This document shows, in pieces, positions 1 to 32,676 of a stretch of DNA of 64,000 nucleotides. The position numbers and the translations under genes were made by a program. The DNA lies in NCBI RefSeq assembly GCF_003334405.1, contig NZ_QOWM01000001.1. One strand, given 5' to 3'. A model generated the notes under the pieces. That model was not told where the DNA came from. It saw only the letters and a program-made list of their open reading frames with translations, and did no database searches. The number at the start of each line of letters is the position of its first letter. Position 1 is the first letter of the stretch. The DNA comes from Escherichia coli. Lineage in GTDB: Bacteria; Pseudomonadota; Gammaproteobacteria; Enterobacterales; Enterobacteriaceae.

Positions 1-2643
1 GGGATCGGCAACATTCGCGCCGATCACGTACAAAAAGGCGAGATCAACGTCGGTGCGAAGCTGGTCGTTCTCGGCGGCCCGGCAATGAACATCGGTCTTG
101 GCGGTGGTGCAGCGTCTTCTATGGCGTCTGGTCAGTCTGATGCCGACCTCGACTTTGCTTCCGTACAGCGCGACAACCCGGAGATGGAGCGTCGCTGCCA
201 GGAAGTGATCGACCGTTGCTGGCAGCTTGGTGATGCCAACCCAATCCTGTTTATCCACGACGTTGGCGCTGGCGGTCTTTCTAACGCCATGCCGGAACTG
301 GTGAGCGACGGCGGGCGCGGCGGTAAATTTGAACTGCGCGAGATTCTAAGCGACGAACCGGGCATGAGCCCGCTGGAAATCTGGTGTAACGAATCCCAGG
401 AACGCTACGTGCTGGCGGTTGCTGCCGATCAATTACCGCTGTTTGACGAACTGTGTAAGCGTGAGCGCGCACCCTACGCGGTGATTGGTGAAGCGACCGA
501 AGAACTGCATCTTTCTCTGCACGATCGTCATTTTGATAATCAGCCGATCGATCTGCCGCTGGACGTCCTGCTTGGTAAAACGCCGAAGATGACCCGCGAT
601 GTACAAACGCTGAAAGCGAAAGGCGACGCGCTGGCCCGTGAAGGGATCACCATTGCAGACGCGGTGAAACGTGTGCTGCATCTGCCGACTGTGGCGGAAA
701 AAACCTTCCTGGTGACCATTGGCGACCGCAGCGTAACCGGCATGGTAGCGCGCGATCAGATGGTGGGGCCGTGGCAGGTGCCGGTCGCTAACTGCGCGGT
801 CACTACCGCCAGCCTCGACAGCTACTACGGTGAAGCGATGGCGATTGGCGAGCGTGCGCCGGTTGCGCTGCTGGATTTCGCCGCCTCTGCCCGTCTGGCG
901 GTCGGTGAAGCGTTAACCAACATCGCCGCAACACAAATTGGCGATATCAAACGCATCAAACTTTCCGCCAACTGGATGGCGGCGGCAGGCCACCCTGGTG
1001 AAGATGCGGGCCTGTATGAAGCCGTTAAAGCCGTGGGCGAAGAGCTTTGTCCGGCGCTGGGCCTGACGATCCCGGTGGGTAAAGACTCCATGTCGATGAA
1101 AACCCGCTGGCAGGAAGGTAACGAAGAGCGCGAAATGACGTCGCCGCTGTCGCTGGTGATTTCTGCATTTGCCCGCGTGGAAGATGTACGTCACACCATC
1201 ACGCCGCAGCTTTCTACCGAAGATAACGCACTGCTGCTGATTGATTTGGGCAAAGGCAATAACGCGCTGGGCGCAACGGCGCTGGCGCAGGTTTATCGTC
1301 AGCTTGGCGACAAACCGGCAGATGTACGCGATGTCGCGCAACTGAAAGGCTTCTATGACGCGATTCAGGCGCTGGTTGCACAGCGTAAGCTGCTGGCGTA
1401 TCACGACCGCTCTGATGGCGGCCTGCTGGTAACGCTGGCGGAAATGGCCTTTGCTGGTCATTGTGGCATTGACGCGGATATCGCCACTCTGGGTGACGAT
1501 CGCCTGGCGGCGTTGTTTAACGAAGAACTGGGTGCGGTGATTCAGGTTCGTGCCGCTGACCGTGAAGCGGTCGAGTCCGTACTGGCACAGCATGGGCTTG
1601 CTGATTGTGTCCATTATGTAGGGCAGGCGGTTTCCGGTGACCGTTTTGTGATTACCGCCAACGGGCAGACTGTATTCAGCGAAAGCCGCACCACGTTGCG
1701 TGTCTGGTGGGCAGAAACTACCTGGCAGATGCAGCGCCTGCGTGACAACCCGGAGTGTGCCGATCAGGAGCATCAGGCGAAATCTAACGACGCCGATCCG
1801 GGCCTGAATGTAAAACTGTCGTTCGATATCAACGAAGATGTGGCAGCACCGTATATTGCCACTGGCGCACGTCCGAAAGTTGCCGTACTGCGTGAGCAGG
1901 GCGTGAACTCGCATGTTGAAATGGCGGCAGCTTTCCACCGTGCAGGCTTTGATGCTATCGACGTGCATATGAGTGACCTGCTGACCGGACGCACGGGCCT
2001 GGAAGATTTCCACGCCCTGGTCGCGTGCGGTGGTTTCTCCTACGGTGATGTGCTGGGTGCCGGTGAAGGTTGGGCGAAGTCAATCCTGTTCAATGACCGT
2101 GTACGCGATGAGTTTGCAACCTTCTTCCACCGTCCGCAAACGCTGGCGCTGGGGGTATGTAACGGTTGCCAGATGATGTCTAATCTGCGTGAACTGATCC
2201 CAGGTAGTGAGTTGTGGCCACGTTTTGTGCGCAATACCTCCGATCGCTTTGAAGCGCGTTTCAGCCTGGTTGAAGTAACCCAAAGCCCGTCTCTGCTGTT
2301 GCAGGGGATGGTGGGCTCGCAAATGCCGATTGCTGTCTCTCATGGTGAAGGGCGCGTGGAAGTGCGTGATGCGGCGCATCTGGCGGCACTGGAAAGCAAA
2401 GGGCTGGTGGCACTGCGCTATGTCGATAACTTCGGCAAAGTCACTGAAACCTACCCGGCTAACCCGAACGGTTCACCGAACGGTATTACGGCAGTCACGA
2501 CTGAAAGTGGTCGAGTCACCATTATGATGCCGCACCCGGAACGTGTTTTCCGTACTGTCAGCAACTCCTGGCATCCGGAAAACTGGGGCGAGGATGGCCC
2601 ATGGATGCGCATTTTCCGCAATGCGCGTAAGCAGTTGGGGTAA
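1..2643 (+). CDS. purL: Phosphoribosylformylglycinamidine synthase PurL, C-terminal ~880 codons (5' end lies outside the window)
   Basis: Frame is open from base 1 (track ORF 85..2643 is the same frame from the first internal Met). FGAM-synthetase linker and C-terminal glutamine-amidotransferase domain with GVCNGCQMM active-site motif. Stop at 2641-2643. Confidence 0.93.
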
Positions 2644-2702
2644 GTCGTCAGCCCATTGGTTTTGCAGCCCGGATGCGGCATTAAGCACCAACCACTATCA
2701 TA

Positions 2703-2727
2703 AGCTCCCAACTCCGGGAGCTTTTTT
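2703..2727 (+). terminator. Rho-independent terminator of purL
   Basis: Hairpin AGCTCCC-aactcc-GGGAGCT followed by T6 run, 60 nt after the purL stop. Confidence 0.7.
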
Positions 2728-2728
2728 G

Positions 2729-2842
2729 TGTCTGTAAATCACGACAATGGGTGGTTTGCCGTGTCGCTTTCTGGCGACACTTAACTCATTGATTTTAATA
2801 TTATCTAATAAGTTTATCTTAAGTTGTCTCTTTTTAGCGACA
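2729..2842. promoter_or_regulatory. Three TGTC-N10-GACA boxes (GlrR-type activator binding sites) upstream of glmY
   Basis: Exact TGTC-N10-GACA at 2729-2746, 2762-2779 and 2825-2842. Spacing and position upstream of a sigma54 promoter match the known GlrR upstream-activating sites. Confidence 0.65.
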
Positions 2843-2931
2843 CAGTGGCTGATTTACATTCAAACAGCGGAGGAGACATAAACCCCTCAAAGCAACGTAT
2901 AATCAGTACGTTACCAAACTATTTTCTTTAT

Positions 2932-2947
2932 TGGCACAGTTACTGCA
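2932..2947 (+). promoter_or_regulatory. sigma54 promoter (-24 TGGCAC / -12 CTGCA) of glmY
   Basis: TGGCACagttaCTGCA with GG at 2933-2934 and GC at 2945-2946 (12-bp spacing), about 12 nt upstream of the predicted glmY 5' end. Confidence 0.7.
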
Positions 2948-2958
2948 TAATAGTAACC

Positions 2959-3144
2959 AGTGGCTCATTCACCGACTTATGTCAGCCCCTTCGGGACGTG
3001 CTACATAAAATACGAATGACGCACAACAAGGTGCCTGCCGTCCAACTTCTGATATCAGCGTAGCTATATCAACCATCGGGCGAAACGTCGAGTTAGGCAC
3101 CGCCTTATTCCATAACAAAGCCGGGTAATTCCCGGCTTTGTTGT
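2959..3144 (+). ncRNA. glmY: GlmY small regulatory RNA (~185 nt)
   Basis: Begins AGTGGCTCATTCACCGACTTATGTCAGCCCCTTCGGGACG, ends with terminator hairpin GCCGGGtaattCCCGGC plus TTTGTTGT (3120-3144). No ORF. Sits directly upstream of glrK, as known for glmY. Confidence 0.8.
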
Positions 3145-3200
3145 ATCTGAACTTCCCCTCGGTTAGCATCAGGCTATTCGCGTCTGACGAGAGTAACACC

Positions 3201-4628
3201 TTGAAACGCTGGCCCGTTTTTCCCCGCTCATTACGACAACTGGTAATGCTGGCATTTTTGCTGATTCTGCTGCCCCTGTTGGTGCTGGCATGGCAAGCCT
3301 GGCAAAGCCTGAATGCGCTTAGCGATCAGGCGGCGCTGGTTAACCGCACTACGCTTATTGATGCCCGGCGCAGTGAAGCGATGACCAACGCGGCGCTGGA
3401 GATGGAGCGTAGTTACCGTCAGTATTGCGTGCTGGACGACCCAACCCTGGCGAAGGTTTATCAAAGCCAGCGCAAGCGTTACAGCGAAATGCTCGATGCC
3501 CACGCAGGCGTGCTGCCGGACGATAAACTCTACCAGGCATTACGTCAGGATTTGCACAATCTGGCTCAACTTCAGTGTAACAACAGCGGTCCCGATGCTG
3601 CCGCCGCCGCACGTCTTGAAGCCTTTGCCAGTGCCAATACCGAAATGGTACAGGCCACGCGCACAGTGGTGTTCTCTCGTGGGCAGCAGCTTCAGCGTGA
3701 AATCGCCGAACGTGGGCAATATTTTGGTTGGCAATCGCTGGTGCTATTTCTGGTGAGTCTGGTAATGGTACTGCTTTTCACGCGGATGATTATCGGGCCG
3801 GTGAAAAATATCGAGCGCATGATCAACCGTCTGGGGGAAGGGCGTTCTCTGGGCAATAGCGTCTCGTTCAGTGGACCGAGCGAGTTACGCTCGGTTGGGC
3901 AACGTATTCTTTGGTTAAGTGAGCGCCTGTCATGGCTGGAATCCCAACGCCATCAATTTTTAAGACATTTATCTCATGAATTAAAAACGCCACTGGCGAG
4001 TATGCGCGAGGGCACTGAATTACTGGCTGACCAGGTTGTCGGGCCGCTTACGCCAGAGCAAAAAGAGGTGGTGAGCATTCTTGATAGCAGCAGCCGCAAT
4101 TTGCAAAAACTGATCGAACAACTGCTTGATTACAACCGTAAACAGGCGGACAGTGCGGTGGAACTGGAGAATGTTGAGTTAGCACCGCTGGTGGAGACAG
4201 TGGTTTCTGCTCATAGCCTGCCCGCACGGGCTAAAATGATGCATACCGACGTCGATCTCAAAGCAACAGCTTGCCTGGCGGAGCCAATGCTGCTGATGAG
4301 CGTACTGGATAATCTTTACTCCAATGCGGTGCACTACGGGGCTGAATCCGGTAACATTTGCCTTCGCAGCAGTTTACATGGTGCGCGGGTTTATATTGAT
4401 GTCATCAATACAGGCACGCCCATTCCGCAAGAGGAACGCGCCATGATCTTCGAACCCTTTTTTCAGGGAAGCCACCAGCGAAAAGGGGCGGTGAAGGGCA
4501 GCGGTCTGGGATTAAGCATTGCCAGGGATTGTATTCGCCGTATGCAAGGGGAACTGTATCTGGTCGACGAGAGCGGGCAAGACGTTTGTTTCCGCATTGA
4601 ATTACCGTCGTCGAAAAACACGAAATAA
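3201..4628 (+). CDS. glrK: Two-component sensor histidine kinase GlrK (YfhK)
   Basis: TTG start at 3201 gives 475 aa (MKRWPVFPRSL...). N-terminal TM segment, H-box LSHELKTPL, ATPase G-box GSGLGLSIA. Track ORF from 3138 is a 5'-extended version of the same frame. Confidence 0.88.
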   Translation: MKRWPVFPRSLRQLVMLAFLLILLPLLVLAWQAWQSLNALSDQAALVNRTTLIDARRSEAMTNAALEMERSYRQYCVLDDPTLAKVYQSQRKRYSEMLDAHAGVLPDDKLYQALRQDLHNLAQLQCNNSGPDAAAAARLEAFASANTEMVQATRTVVFSRGQQLQREIAERGQYFGWQSLVLFLVSLVMVLLFTRMIIGPVKNIERMINRLGEGRSLGNSVSFSGPSELRSVGQRILWLSERLSWLESQRHQFLRHLSHELKTPLASMREGTELLADQVVGPLTPEQKEVVSILDSSSRNLQKLIEQLLDYNRKQADSAVELENVELAPLVETVVSAHSLPARAKMMHTDVDLKATACLAEPMLLMSVLDNLYSNAVHYGAESGNICLRSSLHGARVYIDVINTGTPIPQEERAMIFEPFFQGSHQRKGAVKGSGLGLSIARDCIRRMQGELYLVDESGQDVCFRIELPSSKNTK

Positions 4629-4792: not shown

Positions 4793-5506
4793 ATGCGACA
4801 CATTTTTCAACGATTATTGCCCCGACGGCTGTGGCTGGCAGGGCTGTCATGTCTGGCATTGCTGGGTTGCGTGCAGAATCACAATAAGCCAGCCATTGAT
4901 ACGCCAGCAGAAGAAAAAATTCCGGTTTATCAACTGGCTGACTATCTTTCTACTGAATGTAGCGACATCTGGGCGCTGCAAGGTAAATCAACCGAAACCA
5001 ATCCGCTTTACTGGCTGCGGGCGATGGATTGTGCTGATCGTTTAATGCCTGCGCAGTCGCGTCAGCAAGCTCGCCAATATGACGACGGCAGCTGGCAAAA
5101 TACCTTTAAACAAGGGATTTTGCTCGCCGACGCCAAAATTACGCCGTATGAGCGCCGCCAGCTGGTCGCGCGTATTGAAGCGTTAAGTACCGAGATCCCG
5201 GCACAGGTTCGCCCACTGTATCAACTCTGGCGCGATGGTCAGGCGCTGCAACTGCAACTGGCGGAAGAGCGCCAACGTTACAGTAAACTCCAGCAGTCCA
5301 GCGACAGCGAGCTGGATACATTGCGCCAGCAACATCACGTTCTACAGCAGCAACTGGAACTCACCACCCGCAAGCTGGAAAACCTGACCGATATTGAACG
5401 CCAGCTCTCGACCCGCAAACCGGCTGGAAATTTCTCGCCGGATACGCCGCACGAGAGTGAAAAGCCCGCGCCATCCACCCATGAGGTCACTCCTGATGAG
5501 CCATAA
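4793..5506 (+). CDS. qseG: Lipoprotein QseG (YfhG)
   Basis: 237 aa. Lipobox LALLGC near the N-terminus, Gln/Leu-rich coiled-coil C-terminal half. Lies between glrK and glrR. Confidence 0.85.
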   Translation: MRHIFQRLLPRRLWLAGLSCLALLGCVQNHNKPAIDTPAEEKIPVYQLADYLSTECSDIWALQGKSTETNPLYWLRAMDCADRLMPAQSRQQARQYDDGSWQNTFKQGILLADAKITPYERRQLVARIEALSTEIPAQVRPLYQLWRDGQALQLQLAEERQRYSKLQQSSDSELDTLRQQHHVLQQQLELTTRKLENLTDIERQLSTRKPAGNFSPDTPHESEKPAPSTHEVTPDEP

Positions 5507-6830
5507 ACCTGCGCATTTATTATTGGTCGATGACGATCCGGGATTGCTGAAACTGCTTGGCCTGCGCCTGACCAGCGAAGGCTACAGTGTGGTCACGGCG
5601 GAAAGTGGCGCTGAAGGATTACGGGTACTGAATCGCGAAAAAGTAGATTTAGTCATCAGCGACCTGCGGATGGATGAAATGGACGGTATGCAGCTGTTTG
5701 CTGAAATCCAGAAAGTGCAGCCGGGAATGCCGGTAATTATTCTTACCGCGCATGGTTCTATTCCCGATGCCGTTGCTGCAACACAGCAGGGCGTTTTTAG
5801 TTTCCTCACCAAGCCTGTCGACAAAGACGCGCTATATCAGGCAATTGACGATGCGCTGGAGCAATCCGCGCCAGCCACCGATGAACGCTGGCGCGAGGCA
5901 ATTGTCACCCGCAGCCCGCTGATGCTGCGTTTGCTGGAACAGGCGCGGCTGGTGGCGCAATCAGACGTCAGCGTTTTGATTAACGGTCAGAGCGGCACCG
6001 GGAAAGAGATTTTCGCCCAGGCTATCCACAACGCCAGCCCGCGCAACAGCAAACCATTTATTGCTATTAACTGTGGCGCATTGCCCGAGCAATTGCTGGA
6101 GTCGGAGCTGTTTGGTCATGCGCGTGGCGCGTTTACTGGCGCTGTCAGCAATCGCGAAGGTTTATTCCAGGCGGCGGAAGGCGGAACGCTATTTCTCGAT
6201 GAAATTGGCGATATGCCTGCGCCGTTACAGGTCAAACTGCTGCGCGTGTTGCAGGAGCGTAAAGTGCGCCCGCTGGGCAGTAACCGCGATATTGATATCA
6301 ATGTGCGGATTATTTCTGCCACTCACCGTGATCTGCCAAAAGCGATGGCGCGCGGGGAATTCCGCGAAGATCTCTATTACCGCCTCAACGTTGTCAGCCT
6401 GAAAATTCCGGCACTGGCGGAGCGCACAGAAGACATTCCGCTACTGGCAAATCACCTGTTGCGCCAGGCGGCAGAGCGACATAAACCGTTTGTCCGCGCG
6501 TTCTCTACCGATGCGATGAAACGCCTGATGACCGCGAGCTGGCCGGGTAATGTGCGCCAGTTGGTCAACGTGATTGAACAGTGCGTGGCGCTGACCTCAT
6601 CTCCGGTGATTAGTGATGCGCTGGTGGAGCAGGCGCTGGAGGGTGAAAATACGGCGCTGCCAACCTTTGTTGAGGCACGTAATCAGTTTGAACTCAACTA
6701 TTTGCGTAAGCTGCTGCAAATCACCAAAGGCAACGTCACCCACGCGGCGAGAATGGCGGGGCGCAACCGGACAGAATTTTATAAACTGCTTTCCCGACAC
6801 GAGCTGGATGCAAACGATTTCAAGGAATGA
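5496..6830 (+). CDS. glrR: sigma54-dependent response regulator GlrR (YfhA)
   Basis: ATG at 5496 gives 444 aa ([20 protein letters not shown]...). Receiver domain, AAA+ sigma54-interaction domain ([14 protein letters not shown]) and C-terminal HTH. Overlaps the qseG end by 11 nt. Confidence 0.92.
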
Positions 6831-8791: not shown

Positions 8792-10045
8792 ATGTTAAAG
8801 CGTGAAATGAACATTGCCGATTATGATGCCGAACTGTGGCAGGCTATGGAGCAGGAAAAAGTACGTCAGGAAGAGCACATCGAACTGATCGCCTCCGAAA
8901 ACTACACCAGCCCGCGCGTAATGCAGGCGCAGGGTTCTCAGCTGACCAACAAATATGCTGAAGGTTATCCGGGCAAACGCTACTACGGCGGTTGCGAGTA
9001 TGTTGATATCGTTGAACAACTGGCGATCGATCGTGCGAAAGAACTGTTCGGCGCTGACTACGCTAACGTCCAGCCGCACTCCGGCTCCCAGGCTAACTTT
9101 GCGGTCTACACCGCGCTGCTGGAACCAGGTGATACCGTTCTGGGTATGAACCTGGCGCATGGCGGTCACCTGACTCACGGTTCTCCGGTTAACTTCTCCG
9201 GTAAACTGTACAACATCGTTCCTTACGGTATCGATGCTACCGGTCATATCGACTACGCCGATCTGGAAAAACAAGCCAAAGAACACAAGCCGAAAATGAT
9301 TATCGGTGGTTTCTCTGCATATTCCGGCGTGGTGGACTGGGCGAAAATGCGTGAAATCGCTGACAGCATCGGTGCTTACCTGTTCGTTGATATGGCGCAC
9401 GTTGCGGGCCTGGTTGCTGCTGGCGTCTACCCGAACCCGGTTCCTCATGCTCACGTTGTTACTACCACCACTCACAAAACCCTGGCGGGTCCGCGCGGCG
9501 GCCTGATCCTGGCGAAAGGTGGTAGCGAAGAGCTGTACAAAAAACTGAACTCTGCCGTTTTCCCTGGTGGTCAGGGCGGTCCGTTGATGCACGTAATCGC
9601 CGGTAAAGCGGTTGCTCTGAAAGAAGCGATGGAGCCTGAGTTCAAAACTTACCAGCAGCAGGTCGCTAAAAACGCTAAAGCGATGGTAGAAGTGTTCCTC
9701 GAGCGCGGCTACAAAGTGGTTTCCGGCGGCACTGATAACCACCTGTTCCTGGTTGATCTGGTTGATAAAAACCTGACCGGTAAAGAAGCAGACGCCGCTC
9801 TGGGCCGTGCTAACATCACCGTCAACAAAAACAGCGTACCGAACGATCCGAAGAGCCCGTTTGTGACCTCCGGTATTCGTGTAGGTACTCCGGCGATTAC
9901 CCGTCGCGGCTTTAAAGAAGCCGAAGCGAAAGAACTGGCTGGCTGGATGTGTGACGTGCTGGACAGCATCAATGATGAAGCCGTTATCGAGCGCATCAAA
10001 GGTAAAGTTCTCGACATCTGCGCACGTTACCCGGTTTACGCATAA
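8792..10045 (+). CDS. glyA: Serine hydroxymethyltransferase
   Basis: 417 aa from the ATG at 8792 ([22 protein letters not shown]...). PLP-lysine region [14 protein letters not shown]. Confidence 0.95.
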
Positions 10046-31717: not shown

Positions 31718-31900
<183 letters not shown>

Positions 31901-32565: not shown

Positions 32566-32676
32566 TAAAAAGAATTCAGAATCAGGCCGGAGTGCTAAAT
32601 ACTCCGTAAACACGGTCGTACATCCAGCCGGTAGCCTGATTCCTTGCATTGAGTGATGTACGGAGTTTATAGAGCA

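Follow-up and report, generated by a model that had tools for sequence, protein, structure and literature searches.

The segment at positions 2729-3144 of the stretch of Escherichia coli DNA analysed here, 64,000 nt in length and hereafter called the window, is almost certainly the glmY gene of E. coli K-12 along with the whole of its upstream control region. The glmY locus, its sigma-54 promoter and its three GlrR sites are all already known, and what is described below is textbook biology, with nothing new in it. Over the 4,799 nt compared, the window has 0 mismatches with NC_000913.3 (K-12 MG1655), a position p of the window corresponding to 2694299 - p in that record. The ncRNA glmY (b4441), which that record annotates between purL and glrK (2691157-2691340, minus strand), is found by exact string match at window positions 2959-3142, i.e., over 184 nt. 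A 571-nt query (2640-3210) used in a megablast search of all complete E. coli genomes was 100% identical in K-12 strains and was found in 5,426 of 5,426 genomes, nearly always as one copy and always on the chromosome. A first-pass annotation of this DNA had proposed the glmY small RNA, with a sigma-54 promoter and three GlrR boxes, upstream of glrK, and all the coordinates that it gave agree with the sequence in the part of the window inspected (2400-3500).

GlmY is a known decoy small RNA: by shielding its paralogue GlmZ from RapZ and RNase E, it determines the amount of GlmS, with which amino-sugar synthesis for the cell envelope begins. The only practical point to be made concerns annotation, as glmY is missing from ORF-based tracks and yet is present in all the complete genomes searched. 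Of 38 PGAP-annotated E. coli RefSeq records examined, none has a glmY feature, so the earlier remark that this RNA gene is absent from any ORF track stands, although NC_000913.3 does annotate the ncRNA. At this place the PGAP records (NZ_CP032667.1 and others) list only purL and qseE, and a second assembly of K-12 MG1655 likewise lacks glmY. The elements of the locus, numbered along the window, are the following.

2641-2643: stop codon of purL
2702-2723, + strand: intrinsic terminator hairpin of purL, the upstream boundary of the control region (found by the scan; 8-bp stem with 5 G-C pairs, TTTTGTGTCT)
2729-2746: GlrR (QseF) site ABS1, TGTCtgtaaatcacGACA, -230 to -213 from +1 (exact TGTC-N10-GACA match)
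2762-2779: GlrR site ABS2, TGTCgctttctggcGACA, -197 to -180 (exact TGTC-N10-GACA match)
2782-2794, - strand: distal IHF site (published site 1), AATCAATGAGTTA (exact match to WATCARNNNNTTR)
2825-2842: GlrR site ABS3, TGTCtctttttagcGACA, -134 to -117 (exact TGTC-N10-GACA match)
2901-2913, + strand: proximal IHF site, AATCAGTACGTTA, between ABS3 and the promoter (exact match to WATCARNNNNTTR)
2932-2947, + strand: sigma-54 promoter TGGCACagttaCTGCA, TGGCAC-agtta-CTGCA, with GG at 2933-2934 and GC at 2945-2946, ending 12 nt before +1 (read from the sequence)
2946-2951, + strand: sigma-70 -10 hexamer CATAAT, -13 to -8, overlapping the -12 element and sharing its +1 (PMC3045617)
2959-3142, + strand: primary transcript of glmY (b4441), 184 nt (exact match to the NC_000913.3 feature)
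2959-3106, + strand: processed active form GlmY*, about 148 nt, with the 5' stem-loop and the central RapZ-binding stem-loop (Rfam span; PMC2377431)
3112-3144, + strand: intrinsic terminator of glmY, a 14-bp hairpin with core GCCGGG/CCCGGC, loop TAATT and tail TTTGTTGT (MFE fold)
3141-3176, + strand: putative sigma-70 promoter of glrK-qseG-glrR, TTGTAT at 3141-3146, 17-bp spacer, TAGCAT at 3164-3169, start at 3176 (hexamers inferred from the published start)
3201-4628, + strand: glrK (qseE/yfhK), sensor histidine kinase of 475 aa with a TTG start (exact match to the b2556 CDS of NC_000913.3)
4793-5506, + strand: qseG, lipoprotein (NCBIfam NF007997 equivalog, 359 bits against a cut-off of 234; annotation of K-12 records)
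5496-6830, + strand: glrR (qseF/yfhA), sigma-54-dependent response regulator (NCBIfam NF011695 equivalog, 982 bits against 763, full length)

The gene order is that of glmY, on the same strand as its neighbours and between purL and glrK(qseE)-qseG-glrR(qseF), with glrR encoded 2.3 kb downstream of the RNA gene and followed by glnB according to the annotation of identical K-12 records. On the NtrC model of NCBIfam, this response regulator also reaches 404 bits. GlrK matched only generic histidine-kinase models of that collection, below their cut-offs, and it was therefore identified through its identity to b2556. On the purL side, a truncated REP-like palindrome (GCCCGGATGCGGCATTAAG) occupies positions 2664-2690, just 3' of the purL stop codon. 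Strains 19KM1778 and O157:H7 ATCC 43890 carry 18 extra bases that complete this palindrome (GCCGGATGCGGC...GCCGCATCCGGC), an indel that lies 5' of the purL terminator and leaves the glmY control region unaffected. In E. coli GMF065 (NZ_CM183923.1, 1-150, corresponding to window positions ~2640-2722), a tnpA gene of the IS200/IS605 family is found between purL and glmY, where it replaces the purL-proximal intergenic DNA up to the T-tract that precedes the first GlrR box; from that box onward the locus is intact.

A scan of the whole 64-kb window with Rfam at the gathering threshold assigned positions 2959-3106 of the + strand to the GlmY_tke1 family (RF00128) with 146 bits for a gathering score of 33 (E 1.5e-32), the match covering the full model (1-163 of 163), so that the family assignment announced by the first-pass annotation is borne out. 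The RNA was said to be of ~185 nt, in line with the 184 nt of the annotated gene. Two forms of GlmY, of 184 and 148 nt, have been described, with 3' ends mapped by 3'-RACE at 147-149 nt (Reichenbach et al. 2008, PMC2377431), and the span of the Rfam match is precisely that of the published processed 148-nt form. The minimum-free-energy fold of GlmY has -66.7 kcal/mol (z = -5.7 relative to shuffled sequences) and is made of three parts, a 5' stem-loop, a central compound stem-loop and the 14-bp terminator hairpin (3112-3144). An alignment of 17 enterobacterial sequences preserves this structure, and 14 of its 52 pairs show compensatory changes; because the sequence itself is so highly conserved, there is only modest covariation (covariation term of -0.2 kcal/mol). 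The terminator, too, is conserved across species with compensatory changes. Its core and tail, GCCGGG-TAATT-CCCGGC followed by TTTGTTGT, are present at 3120-3144, and the hairpin and tail previously reported there are thus real, although calling them a canonical terminator was slightly generous, the T-tract being interrupted. A simple terminator and promoter scan of positions 2600-3300, whose only call was the purL terminator, did not report this hairpin because of that interruption, which reflects a limit of the scan and is not evidence that the terminator is absent.

It is highly unlikely that the RNA is mainly the 5' leader of a glmY-glrK-qseG-glrR operon transcript and not an independent small RNA. 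The two genes do lie on the same strand only 57 nt apart, the T-tract of the intervening terminator is interrupted and escapes the simple scan, and glmY-qseE-qseG-qseF of Proteus mirabilis are reported to be one operon (PMC8745638). In K-12, however, the two-component system is "transcribed independently" (PMC3045617): qseEGF has a sigma-70 promoter of its own and read-through from glmY "does virtually not occur" (PMC6075780), two observations on which the operon-leader explanation was rejected for this strain. Moreover, the 14-bp hairpin with its G+C core is strong and conserved, and it is as the processed 148-nt form that the RNA functions (PMC2377431). GlmY is thus best regarded as an independent small RNA, and Gopel and Gorke (2018, PMC6075780) located the qseEGF promoter immediately 3' of its gene, with transcription starting 25 bp before the start codon. 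The hexamers that would correspond to this start were not called by the promoter scan of 2600-3300. Positions 3145-3200 are nearly invariant between E. coli and Escherichia albertii. The start codon of glrK is further from the RNA gene than had been stated, since the terminator was said to end just before the TTG of glrK and the annotated TTG, at 3201, is 57 nt past it; a TTG at 3138 lies within the terminator and is the start of a mechanical ORF only.

The putative -35 hexamer of the glrK promoter, TTGTAT (3141-3146), overlaps the tail of the glmY terminator, TTGTTGT (3138-3144). It is very unlikely, if conceivable, that these bases serve both purposes in such a way that heavy transcription or termination of glmY could physically hinder the synthesis of the activator. 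Were this true, it would amount to a transcriptional-interference feedback on GlmY's own activator system, which is undescribed in the papers cited here. The qseE gene has been reported to show no autoregulation under standard conditions (PMC6075780).

In principle the locus could be glmZ or another member of the Rfam clan CL00011, to which both GlmY and its homologue GlmZ (76% mean column identity) are assigned. The probability of this is nevertheless vanishingly small: GlmY_tke1 is the model that survives clan competition in Rfam, the locus is an exact copy of b4441 and lies in the purL-glrK context, glmZ of K-12 is located elsewhere, between aslA and hemY, with a longer and different 3' part, and E. 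coli glmZ is devoid of a sigma-54 promoter and of GlrR sites (PMC3045617). An identity as glmZ was accordingly rejected on the exact match to b4441 and the distinct location of glmZ.

Upstream of glmY, the three TGTC-N10-GACA boxes are where they had been reported, and they are the sole exact matches to this pattern on both strands of the 64-kb window. Shuffling of the window with preservation of dinucleotides gave a mean of 0.77 matches per 64 kb, and three matches were reached in 6 of 100 shuffles. Three matches anywhere in 64 kb are thus not rare, whereas three inside 114 bp are: from the shuffle mean, a Poisson estimate gives about 4e-10 per 114-bp stretch for such a cluster, and <3e-5 over all start positions. 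Three TGTCN10GACA sites for GlrR, more than 100 bp 5' of the sigma-54 promoter, have been described for E. coli glmY (Gopel et al. 2011, PMC3045617). For that promoter to be active, ABS2 and ABS3 are both required, and ABS1 is dispensable (PMC3045617). The centres of the boxes are separated by 33 and 63 bp, i.e., about 3 and 6 helical turns, which would place the three GlrR sites roughly on one face of the DNA. The purL terminator's T-tract leads straight into the first box (2729), so that purL termination and the dispensable box share a few bases.

The sigma-54 -24/-12 element at 2932-2947 is likewise present as reported, with its GG and GC at canonical spacing and within 10-14 nt 5' of the transcript start (A2959). 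Its sequence is also that of a site found by ChIP-seq of sigma-54, OS24 (TTGGCACAGTTACTGCA), which was assigned to glmY b4441 (Bonocora et al. 2015, PMC4591121) and is identical to window positions 2931-2947. Since two matches to the sigma-54 consensus with up to 1 mismatch were found in the 64 kb for 3.5 expected, the consensus match alone is not above chance, and the weight of this element therefore rests on its position, its conservation and the ChIP-seq data. The promoter mapping published for K-12, against which the first-pass annotation had suggested that the transcript be checked, agrees with this reading both for the architecture (PMC3045617) and for sigma-54 binding (PMC4591121). A weak sigma-70 promoter overlaps the sigma-54 promoter, its -10 hexamer CATAAT overlapping the -12 element and its transcripts starting at the same site (PMC3045617). 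It was not called by the consensus promoter scan of 2600-3300 because its -35 hexamer is poor (TTTCTT, 2/6 matches), which fits the published description of the promoter as weak; the promoter upstream of glrK was also missed because of a poor -35 hexamer, and both misses reflect the limits of the scan, not the absence of these promoters.

Two IHF-like sites with the consensus WATCARNNNNTTR have been reported to flank ABS3, the distal one being essential if the sigma-54 promoter is to be active (PMC3045617), and the positions of both sites in the window agree with that report. As this consensus has 11 matches in the window for 3.7 expected, any single IHF site is weak evidence when taken alone. 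The glmY sigma-54 promoter depends for its activity in K-12 on rpoN, glrR, glrK, qseG and ihf (PMC3045617, PMC6075780). The K-12 papers cited here place the 5' end at about 2959, describe RNAs of 184 and 148 nt, and report the dependence on glrR, rpoN and ihf once CATAAT has been inactivated. The overlapping sigma-70 promoter, the two IHF sites, the 3' processing to 148 nt and the promoter proper to glrK had all been omitted from the first-pass annotation.

Relatives of the locus were sought in species-representative genomes with the pattern GGTGCCT-N{50,75}-AGGCACCGCC, which is unspecific because its two halves are complementary and any hairpin matches it. At least 120 matches were obtained, and about 16 enterobacterial glmY loci were present among the matches listed, from E. 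albertii, four Citrobacter and four Enterobacter species, Pluralibacter, Superficieibacter, Pseudescherichia, Shimwellia, Serratia, Dickeya and one metagenome-assembled genome. This sample leans to close kin (Citrobacter, Enterobacter), only Serratia, Dickeya and Shimwellia being more distant. In 14 of 14 other enterobacterial loci with a full-length match among the matches listed, TGGCA-N7-TGC lies at -27 from the aligned +1, and boxes that are exact or 1 base off occur near -230, -197 and -134 in most of the 14 loci. Across species the boxes are positioned at -215 to -230, -183 to -197 and -120 to -134, i.e., within about 15 bp, the whole set being about 14 bp nearer to +1 in Shimwellia; for one Enterobacter locus, the sequence available ends at -197. 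The third GlrR box has no match in the E. albertii locus. There (~9725-9840, corresponding to window positions 2729-2842), GlmY is 96% identical to that of the window and the boxes are degenerate, the first two ending in GACG and the third reading AGTC-N10-GACG, and the remaining upstream region is far more diverged than the RNA.

The conservation of each element was measured over 14 sequences, namely the window and 13 other species with full upstream sequence, and its values, given as identity to the window, were as follows.

ABS1: 0.98 for both half-sites, 0.62 for the spacer
ABS2: 0.98 and 0.95 for the half-sites, 0.46 for the spacer
ABS3: 0.84 and 0.96 for the half-sites
GlrR boxes overall: 0.84-0.98 for the half-sites, 0.46-0.62 for the spacers
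Sigma-54 blocks TGGCAC and CTGCA: 0.94 and 0.93, with 0.46 for the 5-nt spacer
IHF-like sites: 0.83 for the distal, 0.73 for the proximal
DNA between elements: 0.24-0.50
GlmY RNA itself: 0.90

The hexamer CATAAT is 0.95 identical in the same alignment and is present in 12 of 14 other species examined. The boxes, the IHF sites, the -24/-12 element and CATAAT thus stand out as conserved islands (0.73-0.98), in contrast with the spacers (0.24-0.62).

The description of the RNA as ORF-free holds in that it is not coding, but needs amendment in that two mechanical ORFs overlap it, at 2824-3063 (+ strand, 79 aa) and 2969-3199 (- strand, 76 aa). K-12 carries no annotation for these ORFs, and the frame of each is interrupted by 1-nt indels when species are compared, which shows that the RNA is not coding; a coding reading of the ORFs was rejected on the same grounds. 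The proposal that the motif cluster arose by chance, or that the stretch encodes a small protein, which could appeal to those two ORFs and to a single sigma-54-like match that is within chance expectation, has practically no likelihood of being correct in view of the three boxes within 114 bp (probability <3e-5 over all start positions), the concentration of conservation on box half-sites and paired RNA positions, and the broken frames of ORFs that K-12 annotations do not contain.

The sequence, family membership, fold, motif positions, conservation and neighbouring genes of this locus were established computationally, and for the binding of GlrR, the dependence on sigma-54, the processing of the RNA and the sequestration of RapZ, the basis is provided by published experiments on identical sequence. 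The circuit invoked in the first-pass annotation, in which GlmY, GlrK and GlrR control glmS via GlmZ and RapZ, matches the published one (PMC4152352, PMC7073468). In this circuit, as published for the identical sequence, GlrK phosphorylates GlrR with the help of QseG, a lipoprotein required for GlrK activity (PMC6075780), and phosphorylated GlrR binds its three boxes (TGTC-N10-GACA, starting at -230, -197 and -134). [quoted passage not shown] Transcription begins at A2959, the weak overlapping sigma-70 promoter (CATAAT) giving basal expression from the same base. The 184-nt transcript ends at the hairpin at 3112-3144, its 3' end being subsequently trimmed to yield the form of about 148 nt. GlmY* mimics GlmZ and sequesters RapZ, the adaptor of RNase E (PMC4152352); GlmZ therefore escapes cleavage by RNase E. 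The spared GlmZ pairs with the glmS mRNA and activates its translation, raising GlmS when glucosamine-6-phosphate is scarce (PMC4152352). RapZ acts as the sensor of GlcN6P, the metabolite-free protein stimulating GlrK/GlrR and the binding of GlmY switching this stimulation off (PMC7073468). The stimulation of GlrK/GlrR by RapZ closes a feedback loop.

Elsewhere in the window, the same Rfam scan found full-length matches to ryfA (40050-40353, - strand, 315 bits) and to IS128 RNA (40485-40693, - strand, 262 bits), which are 130 nt apart on the same strand. It also yielded naRNA4, a REP-derived nucleoid-associated RNA (31778-31849, + strand, 72 bits), the iscRS stability element (32566-32675, + strand, 138 bits) and sroE (53522-53613, + strand, 117 bits), all three of which score above threshold and are expected in this region of the K-12 chromosome.

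With respect to known systems, the gene in the window does not differ from E. coli K-12 glmY (b4441, formerly tke1/sroF; Rfam RF00128), its 184 nt being identical, and the control region 5' of it is identical to K-12 records in the stretches compared. The closest relative is GlmZ (b4456; Rfam clan CL00011), with which GlmY has in common the 5' and central RapZ-binding stem-loops, over which a pairwise alignment gives 76% mean column identity. That alignment supports mimicry at the sequence level, and both RNAs bind RapZ (PMC4152352). The 3' part of GlmZ is longer and has diverged from that of GlmY; it contains a segment that pairs with the glmS mRNA, which GlmY lacks. The genes also differ in their control, E. 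coli glmZ being driven by one sigma-70 promoter only and lacking GlrR, IHF and sigma-54 elements (PMC3045617), and in their location, as K-12 glmZ is found between aslA and hemY.

Another enhancer-dependent sigma-54 promoter with IHF-assisted looping is glnHp2, which is activated by NtrC. The QseF-dependent promoter of rpoE (PMC6075780) is likewise an enhancer-dependent sigma-54 promoter with IHF-assisted looping and a response regulator as bacterial enhancer-binding protein. The glmY promoter shares with such promoters the activator sites more than 100 bp upstream, the requirement for IHF, the -24 GG/-12 GC element and a response regulator of the enhancer-binding type, here GlrR. Unlike them, it directs the synthesis of a small RNA, not of an mRNA, and it is exactly overlapped by a sigma-70 promoter that uses the same start nucleotide (PMC3045617).
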